From: Pristiophorus japonicus
Lineage: Eukaryota
Assembly: GCF_044704955.1 (NCBI RefSeq)
Contig: NC_091981.1
Coordinates: 5,890,001 to 5,954,000 of the forward strand
Direction of reading: 5' to 3'
DNA length: 64,000 nucleotides
Shown here: positions 13,500 through 61,094 of the stretch, in pieces
Position numbering within the stretch: position 1 is the stretch's first letter
Layout of the letters: each line of letters opens with the position of its first letter
Position numbers and translations under genes: made by a program
The notes under the pieces: generated by a model
Told to the model about the DNA's origin: nothing
What the model saw: the letters and a program-made list of their open reading frames with translations, nothing else
Databases searched by the model: none

Positions 13500-14068
<569 letters not shown>

Positions 14069-26110: not shown

Positions 26111-28505
26111 TTCAAATCCCCTCTAATCCTTCTCCCAATTACTTTAATTCTATGCCCCCTGGTTGCTGACCTCTCTGCTAAGAGAAATAGGTCCTTCCTA
26201 TCCACTCTATCTCAGCCCTTCGTAATGTTATACAACTCAGCAAGATTTCCCCTCAGCCTCCACTGTTCCAAACAAAACAAACCCAGCCTATCCAATTTTT
26301 CCTCATAGCTAAAATTCTCCAGTCCAGGCAACATCTTTGTAAATCTCCTCTGTACCCTTAGTGCAATCATATCTTTGCTGTAATGTGGTGACCAGAACTG
26401 CACGCAGTACTCCAGCTGTGGCCTAACCAGTTCAAGCATAACCTCACTGCTCTTGTATTCTATGCCTCGGCTGATAAAGGCAAGTAGTCTGTATGCCTTC
26501 TTAGCCACCTTATCTGCCTGTCCTGCAATCTTCAGAGATCTGTGGACATGGACTCCAAGGTCCCTCTGATCCTCTACACTTCTCAGTGTCCTACCATTTT
26601 GTCATGTATTTCACACTACTGTACATAATTGTATCTTACCATGCTATACATGACTGTAACCAGAGATGACCTGTAACCACAAGCTTACCTTACCACCAGA
26701 GGTGCACTTGCAGGAGACACTGGATACCTGTCACAGACAGGTATATAAGGACAGGTGTCAGGCAAGTGAGGCATTCGAGAGCTGTGTAATAAAGGTGCAG
26801 GTCCTGATTGACCTTGACTTCAGTATGTGCCTCGTGTGAATCTGTACTATGGGGACAGGACTTTACAGTGGCGACGAGTTACGGGATCACAGAATCCACA
26901 GAATGGCTACCAACGGCTCAGATGAAAAATACAATGCTGGAGATAATTGGGAGGACTTTATAGAAAGGCTCCAGCAAAGCTTTGTAACCAAAGACTGGTC
27001 AGGCGACGATAAGGCAAACAAGAGAAGAGCCCATCTCTTGACCAGCTGTGGCTCGAAAAAATACGCTTTAATGAAGGACCTGCTGGCACCCGAGAAACTA
27101 GCAAGCGAGTCATTTGAAGAGTTGAGCACACTGGTAAGAGACCACCTGAAGCCAGCGAGCAGCCTACACAGGTTCGACAACTACAGACGCTGTGTGGGCC
27201 AGAGCATACCCAACTTCGTGCCGGAACTTCGGTGGTTGGCTAGCTTATGTGAGTTCTCCGATGAACTAAGGAGAGAAGTACTGAGAGACTTTTTTATTGA
27301 AGGAATAGGCCACGCAGGCATATTCTGAAAGCTCATAGAAACCAAGAACTTGACCCTCGAGGCAGCAGCGCTGGTCGCACAGACATTCTTGGCAGAAGAA
27401 GAAGAAACGAGGTTGAGCTACACTGCGGGTACAACAACTAACGAAACATCGGAACAAGGGGTTCACAGCATGAAACAAGCTGCTACCCCCACACAGACAA
27501 AGGTAGGAGAGCAGGCCCTCATCAGCAGGCAGTGGCGCCAGAAGCCATCAAGGGTCACATGAACGGCCGTTCACACCTCATCAACCCACAATGCGAGCAA
27601 TCAACTACAAACTGAGAGAAGCTCAAGAGAGATCAGCCAGACGCAGCTCATTCTTTGGAAAGAATGGAAGCGGTCTGTGCTGGAGATGTGGGGGAAGGCA
27701 CTCATCTAGGGAGTGTCGATTTCAGCATACTGTTTGCAGAAACTACGACAATACAGGGCATCTGGCCCGCAAATGCAGAAAAATGGCAGCTTGGCTGGTA
27801 TACGAATCAGAAGGGTCATAAAGCAGACCAGAAGACGGTGGGGACAGTACCCGGGACACCGATGTACAGCGGGTCAACACGATCAATGGCCACTGCTCTT
27901 ACAACAAGATGCCTCCAATAATGATGAGGGTCCTTCTCAATGGGATACCCGTCAACATGGAGCTGGATACGGGAGCAAGTCAATCTTTCATGAGCGCTCA
28001 ACAATTTGAAAAGCTGTGGTCGCACAAAAGAGACAGACCAAAACTCACAAGGGTCGACACCAATCTAAGGACCTATACCAAAGAAATCGTCCCAGTCCTC
28101 GGCAGCGCCATGCTCTCAGTCACAAACAAAGGGACAGTGAACCGACTTCCCCTGTGGATTGCCCCCGGAGATCTCCCAGCACTGTTGGGGAGAAACTGGC
28201 TGGCAAAACTAAACTGGAAATGGGATGATGTTCACGCCATGTCGTCAGAGGAACGGACCTCCTGCTCAACAGTTCTAAGTCGATTTGAACATCTCTTTCA
28301 GCCAAGTGTGGGCACCTTCAAAGGGGCTAAAGTCAAAATCTACATCACACAGGATGCTAGACCGGTCCATCACAAGGCTAGAGCTGTGCCCTATGTGATG
28401 AGGGAAAAGATTGAACATGAACTGGACAGGCTTCTGCGGGAAGGCATTATCTCAACCGTGGAATTTAGCGACTGGGCAAGTCCCATCGTCCCAGTCATGA
28501 AGCCT

Positions 28506-30420
28506 ACATAAGAACATAAGAATTAGGAACAGGAGTAGGCCATCTAGCCCCTCGAGCCTGCTCCGCCATTCAACAAGATCATGGCTGATCTGGCCGTGGA
28601 CTCAGCTGCACTTACCCGCCCGCTCCCCGTAACCCTTAATTCCCTTATTGGTTAAAAATCTATCTGTGACTTGAATACATTCAATGAGCTAGCCTCAACT
28701 GCTTCCTTGGGCAGAGAATTCCACAGATTCACAACCCTCTGGGAGAAGAAATTCCTTCTCAACTCGGTTTTAAATTGGCTCCCCCGTATTTTGAGGTTGT
28801 GCCCCCTAGTGCTAGTCTCCCCGACCAGTGGAAACAACCTCGCTGCCTCTATCTTGTCTATCCCTTTCATTATTTTAAATATTTCTATAAGATCCACCCT
28901 CATCCTTCTGAACTCCAATGAGTAAAGACCCAGTCTACTCAATCTATCATCATACGATAACCCCCTCATCTCCGGAATCAGCCTCGTGAATTGTCTCTGT
29001 ACCCCCTCCAAAGCTAGTATATCCTTCCTCAAGTAAGGTGACCAAAACTGCACGCAGTACTCCAGGTGCGGCCTCACCAATACCCTGTACAGTTGTAGAA
29101 GGACCTCCCTGCTTTTGTACTCCATCCCTCTCGCAATGAAGGCCAACATTCCATTCGCCTTCCTGATTACCTGCTGCACCTGCAAAATAACTTTTTGGGA
29201 TTCATGCACAAGGATCCACCGGTACGCTCACGGCCATCCGCGAGAGGTGGGCACCGGAGGGACTGGAGTGCGTCATCACGCCCGGCAACCAAATTTTAAT
29301 TTGATTTTATGTTTTTAAGTTAATTTGTTTTAATTGCCGGTGCTTTTAGTGTCCCCCTCCCCTTTTATAGGGGGCACTTGGAGGGAAAAAAAAGGGGGAA
29401 AAAAAGCCTTATAATTGGTTGGTGTTTCCCCCAGATCGGGGGGGGCACGGTTTAATGTTTTTTGTTTACTCCCAAAAAGAGTTTCATGCACAAGGACCCC
29501 CAGTTCCCTCTGCACCGCAGCATGTTGTAATTTCTCCCCATTCAAATAATATTCCCTTTTACTGTTTTTTTCCCCCAAGGTGGATGACCTCACACTTTCC
29601 GACATTGTATTCCATCTGCCAAACCTTAGCCCATTCGCTTAACCTATCCAAATCTCTTTGCAGCCTCTCTGTGTCCTCTACACAACCCGCTTTCCCACTA
29701 ATCTTTGTGTCATCTGCAAATTTTGTTACACTACACTCTGTCCCCTCTTCCAGGTCATCTATGTATATTGTAAACAGTTGTGGTCCCAGCACCGATCCCT
29801 GTGGCACACCACTAACCACCGATTTCCAACCTGAAAAGGACCCATTTATCTCGACTCTCTGCTTTCTGTTCGCCAGCAAATTCTCTATCCATGCTAATAC
29901 ATTTCCTCTGACTCCGCGTACCCTTATCTTCTGCAGTAACCTTTTGTGTGGCACCTTATCGAATGCCTTTTGAAAATCTAAATACACCACATCCATCGGT
30001 ACACCTCGATCTACCATGCTCGTTATATCCTCAAAGAATTCCAGTAAATTAGTTAAACATGATTTCCCCTTCATGAATCCATGCTGTGTCTGCTTGATTG
30101 CACTATTCCTATCTAGATGTCCAGCCATTTCTTCCTTAATGATAGTTTCAAGCATTTTCCCCACTACAGATGTTAAACTAACTGGCCTATAGTTACCTGC
30201 CTTTTGTCTGCCCCCTTTTTTAAACAGAGGCGTTACATTAGCTGTTTTCCAATCCGCTGGTACCTCCCCAGAGTCCAGAGACTTTTGGTAGATTATAACG
30301 AATGCATCTGCTATAACTTCCGCCATCTCTTTTAATACCCTGGGATGCATTTCATCAGGACCAGGGGACTTGTCTACCTTGAGTCCCATTAGCCTGTCCA
30401 GCACTACCCCCCTAGTGATA
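28506..30420 (-). mobile_element. 5'-truncated young CR1 LINE inserted in the Gypsy RT
   Basis: 7-bp TSD GAAGCCT (28499-28505 and 30421-30427). Removing it restores PVMKPDGSVRICGDY. CR1 RT motifs PQGSVLGP and KFADDT. Confidence 0.95.
29215..29482 (+). mobile_element. 5'-truncated Tx1/L1-type LINE 3' end inserted in the CR1
   Basis: 14-bp TSD TTCATGCACAAGGA (29201-29214 and 29483-29496). Ends an ORF with RERWAPEGLECVITPGNQILI-stop, the same family as 7401-7766. Confidence 0.8.
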
Positions 30421-33400
30421 GAAGCCTGATGGATCCGTACGAATCTGTGGGGACTACAAATCTACCATAAACAGAGTCTCCCTACAGTACCAATACCCGC
30501 TGCCCAGAGCGGAGGACTTATTTGCCACATTGGCTGGAGGTAAACTTTTCTCAAAACTAGATCTCACATCTGCGTATATGACGTAAGAATTGGCCAACAA
30601 TCTAAGCTACTCACCACCATCAACACACATCGAGGCCTTTTCATGTACAATCGATGCCCATTCGGCATCAGGTCGGCAGCTGCCATATTCCAACGCAACA
30701 TGGAGAGTCTGCTCAAGTCCATCCCGGGGACGGTTGTATTTCAAGACGACGTACTTATCATGGGCAAGGACACCGACTCCCATCTCCGCAATTTGGAGGA
30801 AGTACTAAAGCGGTTGGATCGGGTAGGCCTAAGAGTTAAGAAATCCAAGTGCCTGTTTCTCGCGCCCAAGGTTGAATTATTGGGCAGAAGGATTGCCGCT
30901 GATGGAATCCGCCCAACAGAGTCCAAAACAGAAGCAATTCGCCTGGCACCCAGGCCCCGGAATGTCTCAGAACTGCGCGCCTTTCTCGGGCTACTCAATT
31001 ACTTTGGGAACTTTATGCAGAACTTAAGCACGTTGCTGGAGCCTCTCCACGTGCTACTCAGAAAGGGGTGCGATTGGTTTTGGGGTAACGCCCAGAAACG
31101 CGCCTTCAATAAGGCATGCAACCTTCTGTGTTCCAACAGTGTTTTGGCTTTCTTTGATCCAGGTAAAAAGCTAGTTCTTACATGTGATGTGTCAGCGTAC
31201 GGGGTCGGGTGCGTTTTACAACATGTTAATAGTGCGGGTAAATTACAACCCATAGCTTATGCCTCCGGGTCACTTTCGCGGGCGGAGCGCGGGTACGGAA
31301 TGGTAGAGAAGGAGGCACTCGCGTGCGTGTACGGTGTCAAAAAGATGCACCAATACATTTTCGGGGCCAAGTTCGCATTAGAAACTGACCACAGGCCCCT
31401 CACGTCCCTACTATCCGAAAGCAAGGCAATAAACGCCAACGCCTCGGCGCGAATTCAACGGTGGGCACTCATGCTGGAGTCCTACGACTATACCATAAGG
31501 CACAGACCAGGCACAGACAACTGTGCCGACACGCTCAGCAGGTTACCCCTGGCGACCACGGAAGGGTCTGACGAACAGGACTGTAAGATAGTCATGGCAA
31601 TCAATGCCTTTGAGTCCACAGGTTCGCCCATGACGGCTCGCCAAATCAGAGCCTGGACGGCCAGCGACCCCACGTTATTCTTGGTAAAAAGATGTGTCCT
31701 AACCGGTGACTGGGCAGAGGCTCGCGATGCCTGCCCCGAGGAGATCAAACCTTTCCATAGGCGCATGCATGGGCTATCACTACAAACAGACTGCCTGATG
31801 TGGGGCAGCCGAGTAGTCATGCCTCTGCGAGGCAGAGAGGAATTTGTCCGGGGGCACCACCGCGAGCACCCGGGGATCATTCTCATGAAGGCCATAGCCA
31901 GATCCCACGTCTGGTGGCCTGGTATTGACGCGGACTTCGAGCTCTGCGGCCGACGGTGCACCATTTGTGCCCAGCTCAGTAATGCCCCCAGGGAGGCCCC
32001 CCTGAGCCCCTGGCCCACCAAACCGTGGTCGCGGGTGCACGTAGACTCTGCGGGCCCATTCATGGGCAAAATGTTCCTCGTAGTTGTAGATGCATTTTCT
32101 AAGTGGATCGAATGCACCATTTTAAACTCGAGCACCACCTCCACCACTGTGGAGAGCCTCGCAACCATGTTCGCAACGCACGGAATCCCTGACATATTGT
32201 TCAGTGACAATGGTCCGTGCTTCACCAGCGCAGAATTCCAAGATTTTTTAAGTGACCACGGCATAAATCACGTTAAGACGGCACCGTTCAAGCTGGCCTC
32301 CAACGGCCAGGAGGAGCGAGTAGTGCAGATCATTAAACAAGGCATGCTTAAAATCCAAGGTCCCATGCTGCAGGACCACCTGTCGCGACAGCTGCTGGCA
32401 TACAGATCTCGTCCTCATTCATTGGCTGGAGTTCCCCCCGCGCAACTATTAATGAAACGGACCTTAAAGACAAGGCTCTCATTAATCCTCCCAGACATGC
32501 ATGAAATCGCTGAGGCAAAGCGCCGTAAGCTAACCGAGTACCATGACCGAAATTCGAGGGGGAGGTGGAATGAGATAGGGGACAAAGTGTTTGTGCTAAA
32601 CTATGGCAGGGGTCCCAAATGGCTTTCAGGGAGAGTGACAGGCAAGGAAGGAAACAGGTTACTGGTGGTACCAATGGTCAATGGCCAAACCTGCCGGAGG
32701 CACGTAGACCAAGTCAAAAGTAGATTTACCAACAACACTGCGGAACCAGAGGCAGACTACAATGTGGAACTCACACCACACCTGGTGGACAGACAGAGGG
32801 AACAACCTGAGGAAAGGGCAATCCCAACAGACAGCCCAGGCAAGACACCAACAATCACACTGAACGAAACAGACAGCCCAGGCGAGATACCAGTAATCAC
32901 CCCGAAAGAACAACAGGCACCAAGGCAAACGACTGAACCACAACTAAGATGCTCCATGCGAGAGCGTAGACCACCTGAGAGACTGAACCTATAAAGACAA
33001 TAAGATCTTTGGGGGGGGGTGATGTCATGTATCTCACACTAATGTACATAACTGTATCTTACCATGCTGTACATGACTGTAACTAGAGATGACCTGTAAC
33101 CACTAGCTTACCTTACCACCAGGGGTACACTTGCAGGAGACACTGGATACCTGTCCCAGACAGGTATATAAGGTTAGGTCTCAGGCAAGTGAGGCATTCG
33201 AGAGCTGTGTAATAAAGATGCAGGTCCTGAGTGATCTTGACTTCAGTATGTGCCTCATGTGAATCTGTACTGCAGGGACAGGTCTTTACACATTTATTGT
33301 GTATTTCCCTTCCTTGTTAGCCCTCCCCAAATGCATTACCTCACACTCCTCCAGATTGAATTCCATTTGCCACTGTTCTGCCCACCTGACCAGTTCATTG

Positions 33401-39655: not shown

Positions 39656-39826
39656 TGCATATCCAAGTACCTTTTAGATGTAGCGAGGGATTCTGCCTCA
39701 ATATTTTCAGTCAGGGACTGACCAGCACCCAGGCACAACAGCTCAGCAATCTCTGCAAGTTCTAGTTGTAACTAGCGATCATCAACTGTGACCACACTAC
39801 TTTTAAATTATGAAACTTCAACTTAC

Positions 39827-39993
39827 TGCTCTTCTCCTTTGCGTGATTTCTGGTCCAACACGAGATAAACCATCCCGAAACTGCCTCTGCCCAGTCTTTC
39901 CTTAACCAGGTACCTTTTTGCGATCAGTGACTCAATGCAGACCATTGCTAAAGGGTCTGTAACACTTTTCGTGGCTTCTCGGAATTTGGGCAT
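39827..39993 (-). CDS. NEK11: NEK11 (NIMA-related kinase 11) first coding exon
   Basis: Manual minus-strand translation from the ATG at 39993 gives MPKFREATKSVTDPLAMVCIESLIAKRYLVKERLGRGSFGMVYLVLDQKSRKGEE, with the kinase Gly-loop GRGSFG. It aligns by eye with the human NEK11 N-terminus (MLKFQEAAK...LIARRYVLQQKLGSGSFGTVYLVSDKKAKRGEE). The exon ends CA|gtaagt (phase 2), and an upstream acceptor ttgtttattgcag puts the exon start at 40082. It is head-to-head with ASTE1, as in human. Confidence 0.93.
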
Positions 39994-47545: not shown

Positions 47546-47652
47546 AGTACCGGACTACAGACAAGTTATTTGATTGCAGATATATACGCAATGGATTTTC
47601 CGCAAGGCTCCCGTTTTGCTCCCTCTGCCCCGCCCAACACTTGTTTGCTTAC

Positions 47653-47750
47653 CTTGGCCGCCGAGCCCCCTGGAGTTTGGCGTCCGGTCGCTTGGCGACG
47701 GCGCGGGGCACGCCGGGAGCTGGCCACCCGCCGTCACCGATCGGCCGCTT
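47653..47750 (-). other. NEK11: Putative non-coding first exon of NEK11 (5' boundary approximate)
   Basis: Strong minus-strand donor CAAG|gtaagc at 47653/47652 at the edge of the CpG island, next to a CRE palindrome and an X-box-like motif. Confidence 0.55.
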
Positions 47751-48615
47751 TCGCAGTGACGTCACCCCCATGGCTGGCGGCCACCCCCTCCCCCTCCCCC
47801 TCCCTCCCCCCAGCCCGGAAACAACTCCTCCCTGTCGCCTCTCCAGCTCTGGGCTCTTGCAATGAAAAGTTTTGGGGGGGGTTTTGAAAGTTTTTGTTGC
47901 ATTTTATTGATGGCAGATTGGATCTGGCGATGAAAGTTAATGCTGAATACCCGCATCAATATTTCTATCAGACCATTCGCACCGGCAATCTTTTCCTTCC
48001 AGCGAAGACTTTTGCAAATTTGAACTTTTATTATATTTGCAGATCAAAGGTCCAAACTTGTCACCAGCTCCACTGCAAACAGCGGGCAGCGGGCAGGGGG
48101 CCGCGGTCAGTCGGATGTGTTGTTCGGAGTGTTTGCAATTGCGGCTCTGACGTTGCCCAGGACAGGAGGGAGCTTGGTCCCTGTGAGGAGCAAGACTCGC
48201 GTGTTCGGTCTGCAGTCGCCATCGGGCAGCTCGACAGCCTGGGTTGGGTGAGCATTAAAATGAAGCAGCGTTCGCACACCCCGACAAGTGGTGTGATTAT
48301 ATACGTGGAGAGGTGCCACGGAGCCACAGCCTGTGCTGCGCTATGCTGCTGCTCCCTCCGTCCTCCTGTTCCCCCCCCCACCCCACCCCCCGGGCCTGCT
48401 GCAGACCCTGCAGCCGGGGGGGGATGTGACCGCAGAGCCCGTGCTCAGCTCCCGGGGGGGGCAAGCCGGGCCAGTGCAGGAGAGAGAGAGAGGGGAGGGA
48501 TTTGTCGGATGGGCGGGGCCTGTTGAAGCGGGCGCGGCTGATCACGAGGCGGCGGTTGACGCGCCCCGGCGCGAGCTCCGATTCAAACGTGTGCTGCGCG
48601 CGCGGAGGGCGAGGC

Positions 48616-48860
48616 GGGGGTGAAGCACTGTGATTGGGTGGGGCGTTGCGTTTCGGGGCGGGGGGGGGGGGGTGAAGCGCTGTGATTGGGTGGGGCGTTG
48701 CGTTGCGGGGGTGAAGCGCTGTGATTGGGTGGGGCGTTGCGTTGCGGGGCGGGGGTGAAGCGCTGTGATTGGGTGGGGCGTTGCGTTTCGGGGGGGGGGG
48801 GGGGTGAAGCGCTGTGATTGGGTGGGGCGTTGCGGGGCGGCCCGAGCGCTGTGATTGGAC
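48616..48860. promoter_or_regulatory. Tandem array of six inverted CCAAT (NF-Y) boxes with GC/GT boxes
   Basis: Five copies of about GGGGGTGAAGCGCTGTGATTGGGTGGGGCGTTGCG plus a sixth GCGCTGTGATTGG (reverse CCAATCACAG), ending about 90 bp upstream of the HSCB ATG. Confidence 0.75.
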
Positions 48861-48947
48861 GGGACCGGGTGACTGGGCGGGGGCGACAGGCGGTTGTCCG
48901 CCCGGCCCCTCACGGAGCGCGCGCGCGCGCTGACGGACGGACGGACG

Positions 48948-49576
48948 ATGTTGCGCGGCCTGGTGTGTCGGGCCTGCCGCCCGGGGCCTCGCCTGCTCGT
49001 CCTCCTTCACCTCAGCCCGGCCGTGACAGGCGGGCGGTTGCTCCCTGCCCGGGCCGCGATAACCCCCTCGACCGGCGGCGGCCTCGGCCTCCTCACTCAG
49101 TTGGCCCCGCGGACTTTCTGCTCCTCCCCGGCCGGCTGCTGGCGCTGCGGGGCGGCCCAGCCTGACCCGGGCCCGGAGCCTCCTGACTTCTTCTGTCCGG
49201 CCTGCCAGGCCTTGCAGCCGCCCGACCGCCGCCTGGATTATTTTCGCTTGCTGGGCGCGCCGCGAACTTTCCGCCTGGAACCGCGGCGGCTGCGGGAGGC
49301 TCACCGGCGGCTCCAGAGGGCACTGCACCCGGACCGGTTCGGCGGCAGCTGCCCGGTCCAGCGCCGGCACTCGGAGCAGCAGTCGGCGCGGCTCAACGAG
49401 GCGCTGGCCGCCCTGCTGCGGCCCGTGTCGCGGGGCCTGTACCTGCTGCGGCTGGAGGGCGAGGGAGAGACCGAGACCGAGGCCGTGGCAGGCGGTGAGG
49501 CCGAGGCCCCGGACCCCGCCTTCCTGGCCGCCGTGCTGGAGCTCAATGAGCGGCTGGCGGACGGCGGCGAGGCCGA
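48948..49576 (+). CDS. HSCB: Mitochondrial iron-sulfur cluster co-chaperone HscB, intronless over the visible part, 3' end lost in the assembly gap
   Basis: Arg/Leu-rich transit-peptide-like N-terminus, tetracysteine motif CWRC...FFCPAC followed by QALQPPD, DYF, J-domain LHPD, LLRPVSRGLYLL and FLAAVLELNERL. The frame is open for about 209 codons up to the N run. Confidence 0.93.
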
Positions 49577-49776
49577 NNNNNNNNNNNNNNNNNNNNNNNN
49601 NNNNNNNNNNNNNNNNNNNNNNNNNNNNNNNNNNNNNNNNNNNNNNNNNNNNNNNNNNNNNNNNNNNNNNNNNNNNNNNNNNNNNNNNNNNNNNNNNNNN
49701 NNNNNNNNNNNNNNNNNNNNNNNNNNNNNNNNNNNNNNNNNNNNNNNNNNNNNNNNNNNNNNNNNNNNNNNNNNNN
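49577..49776. other. Assembly gap (200 N, probably placeholder length)
   Basis: Run of exactly 200 N. Confidence 0.99.
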
Positions 49777-50583
49777 CTCCCCCCTTCCCCTCTTCTACTC
49801 CCCTTCTTCCTGCCCTTCTCCCCCTTCTCCCCCTTCCCCTCTTCTCCTCCCCCCTCCCCCTTCCCCTCTCCCCTCCCCCCTTCCCCTCTCCCCTCCCCCT
49901 CTCCTCCCCTCTCCCCTTCCCCCCCCCCTTCTCCCCTTCCCCCCCCCTTCTCCCCTTCCCCCCCCCCTTCTCCCCTTCCCCCCCCCCTTCTCCCCTTCCC
50001 CCCCCCCTTCTCCCCTTCCCCCCCTTCTCCCCTTCCCCCCCCCTTCTCCCCTTCCCCTCTCCCCCCTTCCCCTCTCCTCCCCTCTCCCCCCTTCCCCTCT
50101 CCTCCCCTCTCCCCCCTTCCCCTCTCCTCCCCTCCCCCTCTCCTCCCCTCCCCCCTTCCCCTCTCCCCCCTCCTCCCCTCCCCCCCTTCCCCTCTCCCCC
50201 CTTCCCCTCTTCTCTTCTCCCCCTCCCCTCTTCTCCCCTCCCCCCTTCTCCCCGGCTCAGTCTGTCTCTCTTCCCCTTTCCCTCCTTCCCCTTTCCTCCC
50301 CTTCCCTTTCCTCCCCTTCCCTTTCCTCCCCTTCCCTTTCCTCCCCTTCCCTTTCCTCCCCTTCCTTTCCTCCCCTCCCCTTTCCCCCCCTTCCCTTTCC
50401 CCCCCTCCCCTTCCCTTTCCTCCCCTTCCCCCCCCCTCCCTTTCCCCCCTTTTCCTCCCCTCCCCCCTTTCCTCCCCCCTCCCCCCCTTTCCTCCCCTCC
50501 CCCTTCCCCCTCCCCCTCCCCCTTCCCCCTCCCCCTCCCCCTCCCCCCTCTCCCTCCCCCCCTCTCCCCCCCCCCTCCCCCCT
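49777..50583. repeat. About 800-bp polypyrimidine/polypurine low-complexity tract
   Basis: Almost only C/T on the plus strand (CCCCTT/CCCCTC-type units). Confidence 0.95.
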
Positions 50584-50671
50584 CGGCAAACGAGCCAAAG
50601 GTGGGCAGAGGAACTCATTTTGAGAGTGGAAGCAAGTCTTCCTCGATTCAGAGGGACTGCCTATGGTGGTG

Positions 50672-51045
50672 ATTACAGCCTTCTGCACTTCAACTCATAA
50701 CCTCTAACCCCATTTCTTCGGATGTTGGCAGTTCGGATGACTGATGATTCGGCCATTCCCATTTACACCTTGTAGACCCATATTTTGTTTCTTTATTATC
50801 TCCTTGCACCATCATAGAACACTTACAGCCTGGAAGGTGAGCCCGTGCCGACTCTCAGAATCTTTTTCATTTAAAATCTCCTGCCTTCTACCCTTTTGTT
50901 CTCCTCCCGGCCTACCCCGCCCTTTTTGCACTTGCTCAAAACCCGTCACATCTCGTTCTGACAAAAGGTCACTGACCTGAAATGTTTCTCTCGCCACAGA
51001 TGCTGCCAGACCTGCTGAGTGTCTCCAGCACTTTGTTTCTATTGT
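50672..51045 (+). mobile_element. Penelope-like element 3'/pLTR remnant with a degenerate hammerhead
   Basis: LQPS-type ORF end, then CTGACAA-A-AGGTCactGACCT-GAAA and an acagatgctgccagacctgctgag motif shared with 61490-61580. Confidence 0.6.
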
Positions 51046-51544
51046 CCTCCAAAAGCCTGTGGCCTTATCTACACCAAATCCCCCTCACCAGTGTCTGGGT
51101 AGCACTGAGTCAGAAAGTTGTGAGTTCAGAGTCAGTTCAGCTAATTGAAAACCCCTCCACGTGATTACAAGTTACAGAATGGTTAGATTTATTAATCCTG
51201 CTGGAAAATGTATTGAAGTGACTGCACTTTAAAACTACTTCATTAGCTGTGAAGCGCTTTGAGACGTCCGGTGGTTGTGAAAGGCGCTATATAAATGCAA
51301 GTCTTTTTTCACCCCTGTGACGGTGTAGCCGGGTCAGAAATTGAAACTGATTTGACAGCTGTTTCACAAGGATGGTGGCTGTAATTTTATGGGAATGTAC
51401 AAATTCTTTCACTTCATCTACACATCCAACTTTTAACACATGGGTATACAGAGGTTCCGCCAGTCAATGAGATCATGGCTGATCTGCGACCTGACTCCAT
51501 ATACCTGCCCTTGGCCCACATCCCTTAACCAAAGGTATTAAAGG

Positions 51545-51937
51545 TCCATCCCAAATGCTTTACAGCCAATGAGGTACTTATGGAGAGTAGTCACTGTTGT
51601 AATGTAGAAAACACAGCAGCCAATTTGCACACAGCAAGCTCCCACACACAGCAATGTGATAATGACCAGAAAATCTGTTTGTGATGTTGATTGAGGGATA
51701 ACTCCCCTGCTCTTCTTCGAAATAGTGCCATGGGATCTTTTATGTTCACCTGAACACAGACGGCCCCTCCGACAGTGCGGCGCTCTCTCAGCGCTGCCCC
51801 TCCGACAGTGCGGCGCTCCCTCAGCGCTGCCCCTGGAGTGTCCGCCTAGATTTTTCTGCTCAAGTCTCTGGAATGGGATTTGAAGCCACAACTTTCTTAC
51901 TCAGGCAAGAGTGCTGCCCACTGAGCCACAGCTGACA
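51545..51937 (-). mobile_element. Deu-type SINE with about two 33-bp units
   Basis: Head, core and tail on the minus strand. Confidence 0.85.
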
Positions 51938-51939
51938 CA

Positions 51940-52325
51940 CAGGTTAGAAGGTTAAGAGGTGATTTGATCAAAGTTTTCACAATATTAAGGGGAACAGATA
52001 GGGTAGATAGAAACTATTTCCGCTGTTTGGGGTGTCTAGGACTAGGGGGCATAGTCTCAACATGAGAGCCAGACCTTTCAGAAGTGAAATTAGGAAACAC
52101 CTCTACAGATAAAGGGTGGTAGAAATTTGGAACTCTCTGCTGCAAACGGTAATTGATGCTGGGTCAATTAATTTTAAATCGGAGATTGATGACTTTCTGT
52201 TAACCAAAGGTATTAAGGGATGTGGGGCAAAGGCGTGTTTTTGGAGTTAGGTCGCAGATCAGCCATGATCTCATTGAATGGCGGAACAGGCTCAAGGAGC
52301 TGAACGGCCTCCTCCTGTTCCTATG
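51940..52325 (+). mobile_element. CR1 3' fragment
   Basis: SRTRGHSL-type 3' ORF2 sequence and CR1 3' UTR. Confidence 0.8.
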
Positions 52326-53399
52326 GGACGTCTGCTGCTCACCAGTTAAGGGCACTCTGCAGCAACAGACGGCCACTTGATGCTGGACAATGTTTAAAGC
52401 CCTCAGCAGGCTGGCCACGGTGAGTGAGGGTGCGAGCATATGCTGGGATGCTGCTGGATGCACCACTCACCACTATCCTGTTCCACTGGCATGTTCTGGG
52501 ACAGCTGCACTGTGGGATTGTACATGTTTGAAGGGCACCCGCAGGTGCTCAGATCACAGGTCGCGGCAGCAGGTGGAGGAATCGGTTCACCCGGCAGGCA
52601 GAATAATTTGCAATAACTGTTTCGGTGTCTTGTTTTATAAAAGGGAGTGGGCTTGAAATTATCTCCGGTCTCAGACCCCCAGGACCCAGTGTAAGAAACA
52701 TTGTCCTAAACAGCAGTAAAATGAAAGACTTGCATTTATATAGCGCCTTTCACAACCACCTAACGTCTCAAAGCGCTCTACAGCCAATGAAGTACTTTTG
52801 GAGTGTAGACACTGTTTACAAATTAACAAATGTAAATAGATGCAACTAAAAGCATAATTTCTAAGATGGGGCTATTGCATCCAAACCCAGTTTGGAACAA
52901 ATATTGATCACTTCAGGCTACAAATTAGTTTAAGCAGTCAAATGTAATTGAAACGAATTGCTCCCGAAGGCTATTCTGGTTTTGCCTGGAATGATCAGCC
53001 AATTAAAATTCGCGTTACCAGAAGTGCACAGCTGTGACTGAGGCCCAATGGAGACTGGTCTCGGGTTTTTGATCACTGTGCCTACGCTAACCCATTAGAA
53101 TGAATGAGCTACCATGGGTGTTCCGGTTGGACTTCCTCGACCCTTGCCTCTTTCAGCCTGTGCCAGAGTAGAGGTGGATTGGAGTTGCTGCCTTCATGGG
53201 GGAGGTGGAGGGGAAATTATGACATTCTCCTGATTTCTGTTGTATAACTTTCAATATATAAAGCTGAGCAAGTGTACACTGATGCAGTGAATCCGGAGTT
53301 GACTTCGGCTATTTTTGTGCTTGATACAATGATCACGTACGACCTAACCACCCAACTCATTGTGTTTGTTACCTAGGTTGAAGCTTTTCATTCTCGAGC

Positions 53400-54722
53400 A
53401 TGGGTATCCACGGATTGATGAGCTACATTGGAGAAAATCGTAACTTTTTTAATAATGTCAAGTTGCAAAATACAAAAATTGTAATCGATGGTAATAACTT
53501 ATTTCATCGACTTTACTTCGACTCTCTTATCGACCTCCAGCATGGAGGTGACTATGATTCTTTTACCGATGTCATCTGCAAATTCTTTGATGCCCTGTCC
53601 CTCTGTAACATTGCACCGTACGTGGTATTTGATGGTGGATGCGACTCTACCGATAAAAAGCTTGAAACGCTCAAACAACGTGCCAGGGACAAAATCCAAC
53701 GGGCGCACCAAATTTCGAGAGGCGGCGGAGGGACACTGTTACCGCTGCTCGGCGCGGAAGTTTTTAAACAAGTTTTAGTGCAGTTGCAAGTTCCTTTTGT
53801 TCAGTGTCATTCTGAAGCAGACCGTGACATTGTGACTCTTGCTAATCAATGGGCCTGCCCCGTCCTAACACTAGACAGTGACTTCTGCATCTTTGATTTA
53901 AAGGCTGGTTATTGTCCGCTCAATTACTTTAAGTGGAAAAACGTAATTACTCTTAAAGGTGGCTCGGAGTCCTACATTTCAGCCCAATGTTTCTCTGTGG
54001 AGAATTTCTGTAAGCACTTTAGCCACATAAACAAAGCTCTTCTCCCTCTCTTTGCGGTGTTAAATGGCAATGATTATGCCAGCCTTCCTTCCTTGGAGAC
54101 CTTCGTCGCCCGAGTGCAACTCAATATAGGGACTTCTGCTTTCACAAGGAGGAAAAACACACGGATTCAAGGGCTCCTGAACTGGCTGTCCAGATTTACC
54201 GAGCCGCAGGAGGCAATCGAAAACATTCTGAAGTACCTGAAACCAAATGAACACGAGGAGGTCCGCCAGCTTCTCTCTTCACAAATGGATGAATACACTC
54301 AGTCAGAAGTGGACCTCGCAAAGTTCTTTCAGAACCGAGAAGCAAAGCCCGACGTTCCCACCGTGATGGCCAACAAAGCCCCCGAATGGATGCTGGTTGC
54401 TCTGATGAAAGGCGAATTGGCCCCCTTTCTCAGCGACTGCCTGATCATGAAGAGGACGTTCCTGAGTACTCAGGTGGAGAACATGGGCAGGCCCAGCAGT
54501 CACCGGTGTTCCCTATATATCCGCCAGGTTATGTACGGACTGCTACTGGGCCCCAGCGAGACTGATCCTGACTCGGCAGCGGATGTGACTGGACAATGCA
54601 GCAAGGTGCATTGTGTGGAGGAATTTGCAAGACATGAGCGAAACCTGAGAAAAACTAGCATTCAGACAGTGCTGAAAAGATTCAGCTCGACTGGAGTCCA
54701 TTCATTGCGAAGCCTGCCAGAG
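53400..54722 (+). CDS. ASTE1: ASTE1 (asteroid homolog 1, XPG/PIN-like nuclease) coding exon 1
   Basis: Motifs MGIHGLMSYI, IVIDGNNL, GGDY, YVVFDGG, EADRDI, DSDFCIF and GNDY. Acceptor tgtttgttacctag puts the exon start at 53377; donor GAG|gtaagt, phase 0. Confidence 0.95.
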
Positions 54723-55522: not shown

Positions 55523-55721
55523 ATTTCTATGTCGGACAGAATCAGCTTTCTATTGGACACTCTGAAAGTGAAACCAACTGTGCAGACTGTACCAGCTCAC
55601 CTGCGGTTAACAGTTGCTGCAACCTGCTACTGGATAGCTCATGCTGAACCCAGAGTGACCCTGCACCATCTTCAGGCTCTGCTGCTTTGCATTGTAACTG
55701 GCGAATTGCATAAACTGTCAG
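55523..55721 (+). CDS. ASTE1: ASTE1 coding exon 2
   Basis: Acceptor ccttttatag|ATT and donor TCAG|gtaaat; encodes ISMSDRISFLLDTLKVK...ATCYW...LHHLQALLL. Phases 0 and 1 fit the neighbouring exons. Confidence 0.9.
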
Positions 55722-56670: not shown

Positions 56671-56860
56671 GTAACTGGAGGTGTGAGAAGGGCGTTAGAG
56701 TGGTGCACGAGAGACTGTCCCGCCTCAGATTGAGGAAGCAGATAAGGAATCTGGATATCGATGTGGCTCATGTCTTCTGTCAGTGGCAGAGCTGTCTTTT
56801 AATGGGAATCTATCTCAATCAGGCCCTGTGCTATCCCCTTGCAGTCCCGGATATTACACG
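56671..56860 (+). CDS. ASTE1: ASTE1 coding exon 3 (absent from the ORF track)
   Basis: Acceptor cctgcctag|GT and donor ACACG|gtaagg; encodes GNWRCEKGVRVVHERLSRLRLRKQIRNLDIDVAHVFCQWQSCLLMGIYLNQALCYPLAVPDIT, matching the conserved AHIFCQWQSCL motif. Phases 1 and 2. Confidence 0.92.
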
Positions 56861-57422
56861 GTAAGGAAATATGTACATGTTTTATAGAGAGCGGCTTGAT
56901 CACTGAATGCCAATCATCTCATCTGAAAAACGGATAATGCCTTGTTCCCTTCCGAAACCTAGATTTAAGTAGCAGCAGTACGGTTGGTAGATGTATGTGA
57001 ATATAATTCACATTTAAAATCTTACAAAGGTTATTAGCGGTGAATGTGATCTACATGTTCCTCGCCTGTGGAATGTGAATCTGGCTAAAAGGTACAAGAA
57101 ATGTAAAGCACCAGTTTCTCTCCTGGTTTTCTCATAGTTCACCCTATTCCAATATTATTTTGTCCTGTGTACAACTGGTTACAAATCCCTTCAGCTCTGC
57201 TCCAATTAAAATTACACGAATTATTCAACAGTTTTGACGTGTGTATATAATCTGTACTCCAGAACAGAGGAATATCAATTTGCGCACACACGCACACACA
57301 GAGAGCATGGCTAAATGTGAGGACATAGGGTTGTAAATTGGGCAGAGTGATAAGATGTATTCTGGGAGGAAGTACAAGGCATATGCACTAAATGATAAAA
57401 CTTTACGGTGTGTAGACACCTG

Positions 57423-57787
57423 GGGGCCGGAATTGGTCATCCGCCCATTTCTCGGCGGTATGTCAGCAAAATTAGTGCGGACGGTCTGCTCTGGCGGTGC
57501 AGGGACTCTTTGGGTCTTAAGTCTCCCTTTCTCTCTCTTTCCCCTCCCCCCCGCAGAAGCCAGAGACTGCCAACATCAGGTTGGTGTCTCAAGGCAAGTT
57601 TAGATTTTTAGTTGTTTTATGCAGTGTTTTGGGTATTTTTGTGTTTTTCTGGGGGGGCGGTGGACAACACATAGTAGTTTACATATCAACATAAAATCAC
57701 CGTTTTTCAGATGGTGGTATGCTATCACTTTTGGGCGCTCCATATGCCGCTGATGAATTTCCAGTCAGGCGGTATGGGGGCATTTTA
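57423..57787. mobile_element. MITE in an ASTE1 intron
   Basis: Inverted ends GGGGCCGGAATTGGT ... ACCAATTTTGGGCCC, with CTG on both flanks. Confidence 0.65.
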
Positions 57788-57824
57788 TCCACCAATTTTG
57801 GGCCCCTGGTGTTCAGATAGACAA

Positions 57825-58660
57825 ATAAGAACTTAAGAATTAGGAACAGGAGTAGGCCATCTAGCCCCTCAAGCCTGCCCCGCCATTCAACAAGATCATG
57901 GCTGATCTGGCCGTGGACTCAGCTCCACTTACCCGCCCGCTCCCCATAACCCTTAATTCCCTTATTGGTTAAAAATCTTATCTGTGACTCGAATACATTC
58001 AATGAGCTAGCCTCAACTGCTTCCTTGGGCAGAGAATTCCACAGATTCACAACCCTCTGCGAGAAGAAATTCCTTCTCAACTCGGTTTTAAATTGGTTCC
58101 TTTAAATCTTTAAAGTGACAAGTTGATAAAGTTGTAAACAATGATTTTCAAGTAAGCACAGTGTACAATGGCAAAGAGGTAATGCTGAACACATTGATTG
58201 GGCCACAGTTAGAATATTGTTCCGTTTTGGGTGCCTTACTTTACGAAGAATATCAAGGCTGCGGAAGGTGCAAGAGAGTCTCTATCTGGATCAGAGCTGT
58301 AATTGAGGAAAGACTAGAGAAACTGGAGCTGTTTTCACTGGACCAGAGAAGCGCAGGATTTGCTGGAGGTGTTCAAAGGCCTTTAATGAAATAAATAATA
58401 AAAATCTATTGCCAGTGGTCTGAGAGGACACAGATGGGAGGTTAAGAGAACTTTCTTTACACAGAGTGGGACATGGAGTGGCAAAAGCAGAATATTAAAA
58501 ATTTTCAGGAACGATAGATTTTTATTGGGCAAGGGATCAACGGATCGTAAAAGGAGTTGAGGTACAGACCAGCCATAAACTAATTGAGGGGCGGAATGGA
58601 AAGCTGAGTCCACATAGATTCAGTGGGACAAAGTCTCCTCTTGTCTGTACAACTCTGTAA
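57825..58660. mobile_element. Young CR1 3' end (minus, 57825-58100) plus a decayed CR1 (plus) within an ASTE1 intron
   Basis: Near identity to other young CR1 3' ends in the window; PQLEYCS remnant. Confidence 0.8.
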
Positions 58661-59130
58661 TCTGTGGGACATGGTGAATGTCCTCAAGTGTGCTGATTGA
58701 TAACTGAATTAATATTAGCACAACAGGAATACAGATTTTCTACGGTACAGATATTTCCTTATTTCTGCAGGGACACACAAGTGAACAGCTCTGAAGTGGC
58801 ACCCCACCCACCTACCCATTGGTAGATAGCAGATACTTAACCTACTTTCCTGATGTATATAGTAGTTCTCTTCAGTTTCTGCACTTGGTGAAGCCAAGGA
58901 AATATATTTTCTTTCGGGTTGTAGAAATGCATCCATCTCAGAATAGGTGCCAGGAGAGTTTTGTCAGCGTTACCAGTCAAAGACTTCTGCAGCATTCAGA
59001 GTTTCACTTTTCCAACATGTTTTACACTTTGAGCAATGCTGCCAGTTTTCGAATAACTTGGTTGATTTGCTGAATATACTGAGAGCCCACTAACTTGCGT
59101 CCGTTCTCTCTCTCTCTCGATCTTGGAAAG

Positions 59131-59422
59131 ACTCTATAGTGGGACTCTTGTTCATTGCTTGCACCAGGAGCTGAAATCGGTTGCTGCAGAGGATCTATTG
59201 AATGGATCACTAGTTGCAGCAGAGATGTACTGCCAGCTCCTGCACACAGTGACTGCAACGGTACCCGCAGACTTCTTCCAAGGGAGAAGATCCAAGGGCC
59301 GGGCCAAAGTGAAGGAAAAACAAACGACTCGTTCAACAGTCTCACCGACGAGCCAAGGGCTCCCTACCTGGCATGATGTCAATAACCAATTTGCAGCCTT
59401 GTCGACTGAGGATTTCGAATAA
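59131..59422 (+). CDS. ASTE1: ASTE1 terminal coding exon
   Basis: Pyrimidine tract then gaaag|A CTC TAT; encodes (R)LYSGTLVHCLHQEL...NNQFAALSTEDFE-stop. The spliced CDS is 1323+199+190+292 = 2004 nt, or 667 aa. Confidence 0.92.
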
Positions 59423-60533
59423 AACCGGTTCACTAATCAATCACCAGATGAATCAACAACTCGGAATCCTGAATACAAACTGCATGTGGGACATAACCAC
59501 TCGCAATGCACTGAGGTTTTGTAGATGTTTTTAAAATTGTCCTTTAAAGAGAAAAAGTTAATTTTATGGTGCATTTGTAGCAATTACATAAACATTTACA
59601 CGGTTTGGTTGCTCTACTTGTGAAAGCAGTCCACAAGGTGAGCAACTGCTAATCGCAGACTGAAAATAAATCTGTTTCACTGTAGAGTTTAGTTCAGATC
59701 GGATTCGAGGGTCAATTAAACTCCAATTACCTTTTGTTGCCCACCAAATCTATTTTACAATGTCACTCCCTTTCATTGCTAGCCACTGTAGCCTGTGTTT
59801 GGCTGACGCACCTTTTTTTCAAATCACTGTACAAGGCATATTGGTGATTTGTATACTTCCGCCCCCCTTGAATACCAATTTCTATTCACCACCCCTTCCC
59901 TGAGGGCAGAGTGCGTGGTTTCCCTTTTACACGGTACTCCAGTGGCCATTACTTATGACCCTGGGGAATAAAAGTCGGGCTATTTCGCTAAGCCCAGTCC
60001 TGTTTTCACCGGTGATCCACAACAGGAACCCTTGGAGTTTCTCTCCGTCACTGAGGGATGCTGAATCCAAATGTAGTACCCTTACTGATTCTCTAATTAT
60101 CCAGGTCAGGCGTCGAATCGTGGCAGGACTTTCTGCTGAGTGTGGATGCCTGGTTCATTGAGCAACTGAAGCAGTTTGCAAGTTGCCATGTTGATCCACT
60201 CCACATTACAGTGCTAATTTGGCATCTCTTACTGAGTTTGTTAAACAGTGCAGTGTTCCAACCAGCAACAGAAATACATTAACGGTTTTCATCGACAAGG
60301 TAAATGGACAGTGCAAGTAAACAGAAGGTTTAAAATTGGCTTTTATATGCATCAAACTCTATATGCAGTGGTCACAATTTGTGTGTGTTAATTTCAGGAC
60401 CCGTATCTATCCCAAAGAAGTATATTTTTATTCAAGGTGCTTTCATTTTATATGTGTACTAGATTCTATCCTGCCAGTTCAGCCGTCTGAAATAACAATT
60501 TTTGTAACTGCATCTGATTCTATCTGGAAATGG

Positions 60534-60539
60534 AATAAA
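60534..60539 (+). terminator. Likely ASTE1 polyadenylation signal
   Basis: AATAAA followed by a T/GT-rich tract at about 60554-60568. Alternative AATAAA hexamers lie at 59418 (overlapping the stop codon) and 59665. Confidence 0.5.
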
Positions 60540-61094
60540 ATCTTGATGTAAGATTTGTTTTTTTGTGGCAACTGTATGCATTATCGCAACTCAGTTTATA
60601 AAATATGGCCATTTTTAACTTTAATAAATTTCATACTATGTTGGAGGGGGCAACTAAAACAAAGAGGCTAACAATACTTAAAATACAAGTGTTAACACTG
60701 GTTTATAAGTCAATTAATAGCATTGAAAGATGCAAAATGCACAGTACAGAAAGTAGCTTTTGAACATTCTGTGCAGCCTCCATTTCCAAGTTTCAGAGAA
60801 ATCATTCATCAAAACAGAAAGATAGAATCCAGCCCAGCTCAAACCTCCAGAATTGCCTTAGCTTTGCCTGGGTCAGTTTTCCTTGCTTGAAACTGATGCA
60901 GCTCGAGTCACTGCATTCCAAGCTCTACTGTATGAGCGCATAGTGTCCAACATGTTATATAGTTCTTAACTTGAGAACAAAAGTTTCCTCAGTGGAATCT
61001 AAAACAGCAGCCAACCAGTGCAGGAATTGGTTTGCGCTATGACTTGGTCCAGGGGCTGCAATGGTGGAAGTGGTGTTAGAGGGTAAAACACTTC

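Follow-up and report, generated by a model that had tools for sequence, protein, structure and literature searches.

The start codon of ASTE1 in Pristiophorus japonicus lies in an exon that opens at a splice acceptor (the AG at 53375-53376, the start of the exon at 53377 and the ATG at 53400 are all present), which raises the question of where the upstream part of the ASTE1 message comes from and how HSCB, a frame lying upstream on the same strand, is related to it. The window, the whole stretch of 64,000 nucleotides that was analysed (NC_091981.1, positions 5,890,001 to 5,954,000), was read together with sequencing runs from the species itself (X9, X10 and X11, all of one study) and from a relative (X6). 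Contigs assembled from the short reads of these runs join exons and skip introns, which is why the runs were treated as RNA. Junctions were drawn from contigs aligned to 941 bases, giving three junction records there, which extend only 28-29 letters past the junction; just X10 record 2 reaches the 31-letter bar. The probable answer is that HSCB is a retrogene in intron 1 of ASTE1 whose exon is joined by splicing to the exon holding the ASTE1 start, so that one mRNA likely contains both frames, and that a second first exon bypasses HSCB. The features of the locus are:

39826..39993, minus strand: first coding exon of a kinase gene of the NEK family, divergent from ASTE1 (relatives 48-55% identical)
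47645..47658, minus strand: candidate end of a non-coding first exon of the NEK gene, with a strong donor (intron from 47652), from sequence only
47865..48247, plus strand: ASTE1 exon 1a, upstream first exon (X10 record 4; 412 nt, depth 11.9)
48248..53376, plus strand: ASTE1 intron 1, HSCB-skipping form, GT..AG (5129 nt including 200 N)
48609..48860, plus strand: tandem array (unit ~44 nt) carrying GC boxes and 6 inverted CCAAT boxes, likely the HSCB promoter
48948..49576, plus strand: visible part of the HSCB coding sequence (209 codons, intronless)
49577..49776, plus strand: assembly gap holding the rest of HSCB, its stop, 11 nt and the exon 1b donor (X10 record 2, X9 record 9)
49777..50584, plus strand: low-complexity C/T repeat, within the intron of both forms
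52973..53041, plus strand: false last exon of the database HSCB model P0001, a gap artefact contradicted by RNA contigs
53377..54722, plus strand: ASTE1 exon 2 (23 nt leader, ATG 53400, XPG_N domain)
55523..55721, plus strand: ASTE1 exon 3 (transcript contigs and sequence)
56671..56860, plus strand: ASTE1 exon 4
59131..60550, plus strand: ASTE1 last exon (stop ends at 59422; AATAAA at 60534; 3′ end approximate)

The acceptor at 53377 is used, given that contigs begin at 53375/53376 or three letters before 53379 in five of six runs. The sequence-only reading had proposed donors for it at 48248, at 49495 and in the gap. The first proved real: 30 loose contig letters equal window positions 48217-48246 and are joined to 53377. 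A gap donor also exists, located 11 nt past the HSCB stop and spliced to 53377 in contigs; 49495, inside HSCB, is absent among the three junction records at the acceptor. There are nine donor-like GT[AG]AG sites between 47000 and 53400, including 48248 and 49495, and by sequence alone these two were therefore no better than the rest. GT sites at 50837, 51120 and 52420 were considered as ASTE1 donors and were unseen at the acceptor in the junction records. Nesting of HSCB in ASTE1 intron 1 (donor 48248 form) and sharing of the ASTE1 mRNA (gap-donor form), posed earlier as alternatives, both occur.

Exon 1a is spliced from 48247 to 53377 in contigs, so that this host form crosses and skips the nested gene. 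It is joined to the acceptor in one of the two own-species runs aligned there (X10; depth 12) and assembled at it in one of three over both contig alignments. Its 3′ end is shown by the contig, and its 5′ end at 47865 is estimated from contig size, assuming no further intron. The exon holds four ATGs, and the frame from 47930 is open to the donor; with 119 codons, it would run across the ASTE1 ATG to a stop at 53416-53418. The CpG-rich segment 47501-49500 is the sole GC-/CpG-rich island adjoining ASTE1. The view that the only visible CpG-island promoter is the one containing HSCB holds next to ASTE1; other islands lie farther off in the window. Among the pieces listed, the unique parts of 50.6-53.3 kb have a depth of 3.9-7.6 (vs 5-26 in other ASTE1 introns), and these shallow pieces do not argue against a further ASTE1 first exon there.

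The HSCB exon is joined to the acceptor in both own-species runs aligned there, at a depth of ~50. Two records end on the ASTE1 exon: X10 record 2, of 826 nt at a depth of 48.7, and X9 record 9, of 56 nt at a depth of 50.1. The order in exon 1b is the HSCB C-terminus, the stop and 11 nt, followed by the ASTE1 exon, which places the ASTE1 ATG 34 nt after the HSCB stop. The loose letters at the junction encode E-R-L-P-P-A-stop, matching the elasmobranch HSCB end, and have no match in the window at 2 mismatches. The size of the 826-nt contig fits a start ~15 nt after the HSCB ATG, with the length of HSCB estimated from the 63 residues that follow an anchor motif in 17/17 relatives. A conserved HSCB end (L-P-R-stop) overlapping the donor was rejected for Pristiophorus japonicus, in which the donor lies 11 nt past the stop. 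An in-frame TGA at 53379-53381 is present, as had been noted; even ahead of it, the HSCB stop before the donor precludes an HSCB-ASTE1 fusion protein.

Two separate full frames are therefore joined in spliced RNA by the junction records; no contig spans both, the 826-nt and 1736-nt contigs overlapping by 30 letters. The ASTE1 contig of X9 and X11 begins at 53375, so AG must close every upstream path assembled there; the HSCB exon ends in this way and exon 1a does not. At the acceptor, the HSCB junction stands at 48.7 vs 11.9 for exon 1a in X10, and at 50.1 vs 7.6 for the unspliced path in X9, although contig depth is a poor measure of form abundance and upstream depths do not sum to the exon depth. 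Counting against the bicistronic reading, the ASTE1 exon is deeper (118 and 179) than its upstream paths added together (58 and 61), and the 56-nt contig of X9 implies a second, unspliced path leaving the HSCB exon. Also against it, in the relative (X6), the ASTE1 contig extends upstream by 289 aligned and 274 further letters, which are intron-like and not HSCB.

Membership of the upstream product in the HSCB/HSC20 co-chaperones is indicated by a four-cysteine motif and a J domain with HPD, both of which align to human HSC20 (PDB 3bvo; E 4e-28); the match to PF18256 (E 8e-4) is below the curated cut-off. The C-terminal ISCU-binding domain lies mostly in the gap, where ~169 nt are expected to complete a frame of ~266 codons; the last six residues and the contig size fit, and PF07743 was found in the ray relative P0002. 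The last 22 residues of the database model P0001 are a gap artefact, and the present analysis corrects this HSCB model of Pristiophorus japonicus. The visible 629 nt have 75% GC (GC3 0.89) and one further ATG only (49546, out of frame). One out-of-frame ATG compares with 1.4 in shuffles, indicating no specific AUG depletion, and the low Met content (0.59% vs 1.86%) accompanies a general GC-driven depletion of F, Y, M, I, N and K. The HSCB start context is adequate (A at -3), and that of ASTE1 is optimal. With six inverted CCAAT boxes per 300 nt, the window maximum (mean 0.76), the array at 48609..48860 is, judged by its motifs, likely the promoter of HSCB itself.

HSCB is likely an old retrotransposed copy. 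Its 209 visible codons are intronless, although the exon skipped in amniote isoforms maps to the unread gap, which may hide introns; amniote HSCB has introns, as its exon-skipping isoforms indicate. Amniote HSCB has six exons, and human introns 1-3 fall within the part visible here. A poly(A) remnant and target-site duplication are not expected to persist so long, and the HSCB 3′ end is in the gap. HSCB and ASTE1 occupy one chromosome in 19/19 elasmobranchs vs 0/18 other vertebrates, judged by a same-length chromosome for both genes; accession numbers are within 55 in 16/19, and their order is uninformative in the other three (Rhincodon, Heterodontus and Heptranchias). The place of HSCB is new relative to outgroups, and the host locus retains the NEK-ASTE1 order. 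Elasmobranch HSCBs form a single group (support 100/100) with one locus per species among the matches listed. No second copy appeared in 36/36 matches or in the best 120 of 210 in protein lists, and no chimaera HSCB was among the matches listed. Full-length relatives of both HSCB and ASTE1 occur in elasmobranchs, and both frames are conserved as proteins. In the Pristis RefSeq HSCB model, the 13 terminal residues correspond to the ASTE1 start exon translated in a frame other than its own (6/13 identical, with the same length to the stop).

In the proposed mechanism, HSCB would have been retroposed before the shark-ray split and the parent then lost, so that the old retrogene took the place of its parent and came to serve ASTE1 as an alternative first exon. 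HSCB would have its own promoter, at the CCAAT/GC array, and would use the ASTE1 poly(A) site, placing both complete frames on one molecule. HSCB would be translated from the first AUG of the exon 1b mRNA and ASTE1 by leaky scanning, likely at a lower rate, with ASTE1 translation clearing the downstream exon junctions and so sparing the HSCB message nonsense-mediated decay. Against this, reinitiation is predicted to fail after upstream frames longer than ~55 codons (PMC4705651). A stronger version, in which the sole HSCB has always been the first cistron of an ASTE1 mRNA throughout shark and ray history as an obligate, translation-coupled vertebrate operon, is a tentative possibility. If true, an essential Fe-S gene would need the exons, poly(A) site and translation of ASTE1 to escape decay, ASTE1 output would be set by ribosomes getting past a 266-codon frame, and the locus would offer a natural experiment on leaky scanning or reinitiation behind a long frame.

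A division of labour, in which exon 1b RNA is an HSCB mRNA with ASTE1 exons as its 3′ UTR and poly(A) site and ASTE1 protein comes from the exon 1a form only, appears rather unlikely. The HSCB-skipping form exists in contigs, most ribosomes should be captured by a first frame that is 266 codons long and has A at -3, and the lack of selected AUG depletion in HSCB points the same way. However, exon 1a is at the acceptor in only one of three own-species runs, and its four ATGs include one opening the 119-codon frame over the ASTE1 start. Exon junctions far behind a stop are a decay signal; untranslated ASTE1 would leave three of them far past the HSCB stop, yet the HSCB junction is the deeper one.

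That HSCB is a nested retrogene of the ordinary type, ending at a poly(A) site of its own, its junction to ASTE1 being a read-through by-product competing with polyadenylation as in Mcts2/H13, is improbable. The promoter-like array ahead of HSCB and the branch at its donor in X9 would suit it, and a signal could hide in the gap or be one of the ATTAAA hexamers at 51537 and 53002. Nevertheless, no AATAAA was found in 49777-53376, the X10 contig runs from HSCB into ASTE1 without a branch at the donor, the HSCB junction is deeper than its alternative in both runs, and the ray gene model has a similar join; competition between HSCB polyadenylation and ASTE1 splicing, suggested beforehand, was accordingly not borne out, and the coupling of Fe-S biogenesis to DNA repair suggested with it is hypothetical. 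Chimeric contigs or mis-assembly over the gap are very improbable. The gap does fall exactly at the HSCB end, and the junction records overlap ASTE1 by only ~30 letters, but both junctions begin exactly at the canonical acceptor, the partner in one of them has a GT donor and lies 1.3 kb to the left of the gap, the same HSCB junction comes from two runs, and the linkage recurs in 19/19 other assemblies.

For the preferred reading, a bicistronic mRNA built on a retrogene, the products themselves are familiar: HSCB resembles human HSCB/HSC20 (PDB 3bvo) in its four-cysteine motif and J domain with HPD, and ASTE1 shares the XPG_N nuclease domain of human ASTE1. The CERS1 first frame is long, and therefore the HSCB frame size alone is not unique. 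Tandem, non-overlapping frames with leaky scanning or reinitiation proposed are described for RPP14-HTD2, SNURF-SNRPN and CERS1-GDF1, which are other genes (RPP14 first frame 124 codons; PMC4705651). Retroposition is a source of vertebrate bicistronic mRNAs, termed 'gene symbiosis', including STREMI-SLC35A4, PYURF-PIGY, MIURF-MIEF1 and ASDURF-ASNSD1 (PMC13303939). As in those mRNAs, two unrelated conserved frames share a spliced RNA, one is intronless and the upstream product is mitochondrial; in the featured case, however, the retroposed frame is downstream and the upstream one is a 103-residue microprotein (PMC13303939). HSCB-ASTE1 differs in that the intronless frame is upstream, has ~266 codons and is apparently all that exists of a housekeeping gene, and in having a bypass first exon. 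Both frames are shown translated in the gene-symbiosis cases (PMC13303939), whereas the evidence for HSCB-ASTE1 is of RNA junctions. Orphan and intron-nested retrogenes (CHMP1B; Mcts2/H13, Nap1l5/Herc3, KTI12/TXNDC12) likewise show an intronless copy in a host intron, an apparently lost parent and a promoter of their own, but they either finish at a poly(A) site of their own or cut the host short (PMC5408686); the HSCB exon instead splices forward to an intact host frame.

A literature search found no published account of the HSCB-ASTE1 arrangement, and bicistronic mRNAs born by retroposition are an already known kind. Known vertebrate two-protein mRNAs are few: 14 passed a strict human screen, and they were found in mammals (PMC13303939). 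The HSCB-ASTE1 case is lineage-specific, and its origin can be located on the tree; it is distinguished by a probably retroposed gene that lies upstream, is long and apparently has no other copy, although it is a housekeeping gene. The case allows translation of a second frame behind a long first frame, and the escape of such RNA from nonsense-mediated decay, to be tested directly.

At the other end of the locus, ASTE1 last-exon contigs reach 60419-60514. The NEK kinase gene lies head-to-head upstream of ASTE1, in the same order as in human, and by that order, as by its sequence, is probably NEK11. Relatives of its exon are Pkinase, with NEK1/7/2 closest in PDB, and the ESM Atlas gave a weak kinase lead only. 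Human ASTE1 is a shieldin-recruited endonuclease (PMC9894118), and human NEK11 and ASTE1 have a common promoter island (PMC6444381).

ASTE1 has two first exons according to the transcript junctions, one of them the HSCB exon. What the sequence-only reading observed at the ASTE1 acceptor is real: the acceptor (53377), the ASTE1 ATG (53400), an in-frame TGA (53379-53381) and donor-like sites at 48248 and 49495 are all present as claimed. The proposed donor at 48248 is used, as record 4 of sequencing run X10 (412 nt, depth 11.9) holds 48217-48246 at the junction, and HSCB does share the ASTE1 mRNA, as X10 record 2 (826 nt, depth 48.7) and X9 record 9 (56 nt, depth 50.1), both terminating on the acceptor, join it to the HSCB end. 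Both upstream junctions are present in one run, X10; exon 1a, the first exon upstream of HSCB (3' end TGG), was assembled only there. It is very probable that the two-frame RNA, in which the HSCB exon is spliced to ASTE1 exon 2, is a main form. With more modest confidence, we favour an old HSCB retrogene in ASTE1 intron 1, joined to the ASTE1 start exon, with both frames read.

Eleven runs were found, three containing 95-98% of words (single study, type unrecorded) and eight from two relatives, and six (X9, X10, X11, X5, X2 and X6) were compared with the window. They are taken as transcripts because depth tracks exons and contigs connect exons. The acceptor-region comparison (X9, X10, X2, X6) gave nine records, three with foreign letters beyond the ASTE1 acceptor; past-junction letters number only 28-29 per record, owing to the 30-letter contig overlap, and none of the nine covers both the HSCB and ASTE1 frames. 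Since the ASTE1 contig starts at 53375 in X9 and X11, all assembled upstream paths in these runs end in AG. Contigs of X2 and X5 begin at the acceptor, with no upstream partner seen. In X6, from a relative, the ASTE1 contig continues into intron-like sequence aligning to 53088-53376, directly before the acceptor and contiguous with the relative's ASTE1 RNA; this extension may reflect pre-mRNA, intron retention or an alternative 5' end. X9 holds an unspliced piece (53009-53404, depth 7.6). Summed upstream depths reach one third to one half of ASTE1 exon depth. The 28+28 shape of the 56-nt X9 contig would fit a 31-letter graph with a second GT path leaving the HSCB exon, implying a donor and some read-through.

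The locus is the usual head-to-head NEK/ASTE1 arrangement with HSCB added.

Features of the locus (window coordinates)
39826-39993, minus strand, initial coding exon of a kinase of the NEK family (as its relatives are)
47652, minus strand, strong donor near the island, from sequence
48609-48860, plus strand, array holding GC boxes plus six CCAAT boxes in inverted orientation (CCAAT density at the window maximum)
49577-49776, plus strand, assembly gap (200 N) interrupting HSCB, from sequence

The 39 kb left of this coding exon yielded no additional kinase exon, which makes the next intron of the kinase gene a long one. We take the kinase to be NEK11, in view of the human NEK11/ASTE1 island. The start sites of human NEK11 and ASTE1 lie within one common island (PMC6444381). 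Protein database searches matched the ASTE1 exon to the Pristiophorus japonicus ASTE1 protein, and the visible HSCB frame (48948-49576) to that species' HscB model in UniRef (P0001), each at 100% identity. Functions of HSC20 (PMC10235907) and ASTE1 (PMC9894118) have been described.

HSCB runs for 209 codons without an intron before the gap. The foreign letters of X10 record 2 and X9 record 9 read E-R-L-P-P-A-stop, then 11 nt (relatives end E-R-L-L-P-R-stop), and are located in the gap, since the window has no match to them. This sets the spacer from the HSCB stop to the start codon of ASTE1 at exactly 34 nt. As 63 residues follow the HSCB anchor motif in 17/17 relatives, sawshark HSCB should have 266 codons; at that length the 826-nt contig would begin about 15 nt past the HSCB ATG. 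The last 22 residues of P0001 are an artefact, encoded by intron (52973-53041) and matching no relative; this false C-terminus stems from the gap.

Linkage was judged indirectly, from database-record fields of HSCB and ASTE1 proteins. The longest-contig field is identical for the two in 19/19 elasmobranch species with both records; accession numbers are 1-55 apart, ASTE1 then HSCB, in 16 of the 19, and not comparable or distant in three. The field is unequal in 18/18 other vertebrates for which both proteins are on record (8 squamates, 2 turtles, 2 marsupials, 4 placentals, 1 salamander, 1 lungfish), at least four having scaffold-level assemblies. In Pristis, the C-terminus of the HSCB model is an out-of-frame reading of the ASTE1 start exon, reached through a join 8 codons ahead of the usual HSCB stop, and a whale-shark ab initio model (P0163) connects the last HSCB codon to ASTE1 exon 3.

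Neither the 36/36 matches nor the 120 of 210 matches listed included a second elasmobranch HSCB. The 20 elasmobranch HSCB rows cluster as a single group (100/100), whose stem is long and whose codons have shifted strongly toward GC-rich ones (GARP/FYMINK 3.78 vs 1.13; ASTE1 control 0.65 vs 0.73), a shift that may inflate the grouping support. HSCB proteins P0002-P0018 are strongly enriched toward Gly/Ala/Arg/Pro (Lys 1.0% vs 6.9%). This shift and the long stem would be expected of an HSCB relocated into a CpG island. Human HSCB has six exons, and amniote isoforms missing one 16-residue block indicate introns there.

A bidirectional promoter upstream would serve the NEK gene and exon 1a, and the CCAAT/GC-box array would drive the HSCB exon. 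No ATG lies between 48510 and 48947. AATAAA is absent between 47000 and 58390, so by this motif HSCB likely takes ASTE1's poly(A) site. Leaky scanning past HSCB could let ribosomes read ASTE1 on the two-frame RNA. The HSCB start has A at -3 and T at +4, and the ASTE1 start context is optimal; the visible HSCB frame contains only one additional ATG, with no sign there of selected AUG avoidance (1 ATG vs 1.4), and the gap probably holds a conserved HSCB Met. Poor reinitiation is expected behind long frames (PMC4705651). Exon 1a makes an imperfect alternative, because it carries four ATGs, one with a frame overlapping the ASTE1 start, provided transcription begins as far upstream as the contig implies. 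In the exon-1a form, an upstream frame of 119 codons (47930-48247 joined to 53377-53418) would run across the ASTE1 start in a different reading frame; the corresponding 13-codon stretch is open in a ray too. A stop far upstream of exon junctions is a signal for mRNA decay. The HSCB stop lies 11 nt from the first junction and far upstream of three others, with which the two-frame RNA would be expected to face decay unless ASTE1 is translated.

Retroposition into active loci has been proposed as the origin of human bicistronic mRNAs, in which 14.3% of the upstream frames and 50% of the downstream ones lack introns (PMC13303939); the main text of that paper leaves HSCB unmentioned. Orphan and nested retrogenes are known categories (PMC5408686). 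Listings from literature searches, with subscription papers and supplements outside their scope, showed no paper on the HSCB-ASTE1 locus.

Database isoforms, together with contigs at 56831-57862 and 58069-59159, point to several alternative last exons of ASTE1 or retention of intron 4 from 56860 on; some tails match repeats. Many copies across the window are presumably CR1-like and SINE elements, and we take 26840-32994 (plus strand) to be broken LTR-retrotransposon-like gag-pol pieces split by CR1-like LINE fragments. An isolated fragment at 13662-14013 (minus strand) carries three C2H2 zinc-finger-like repeats.
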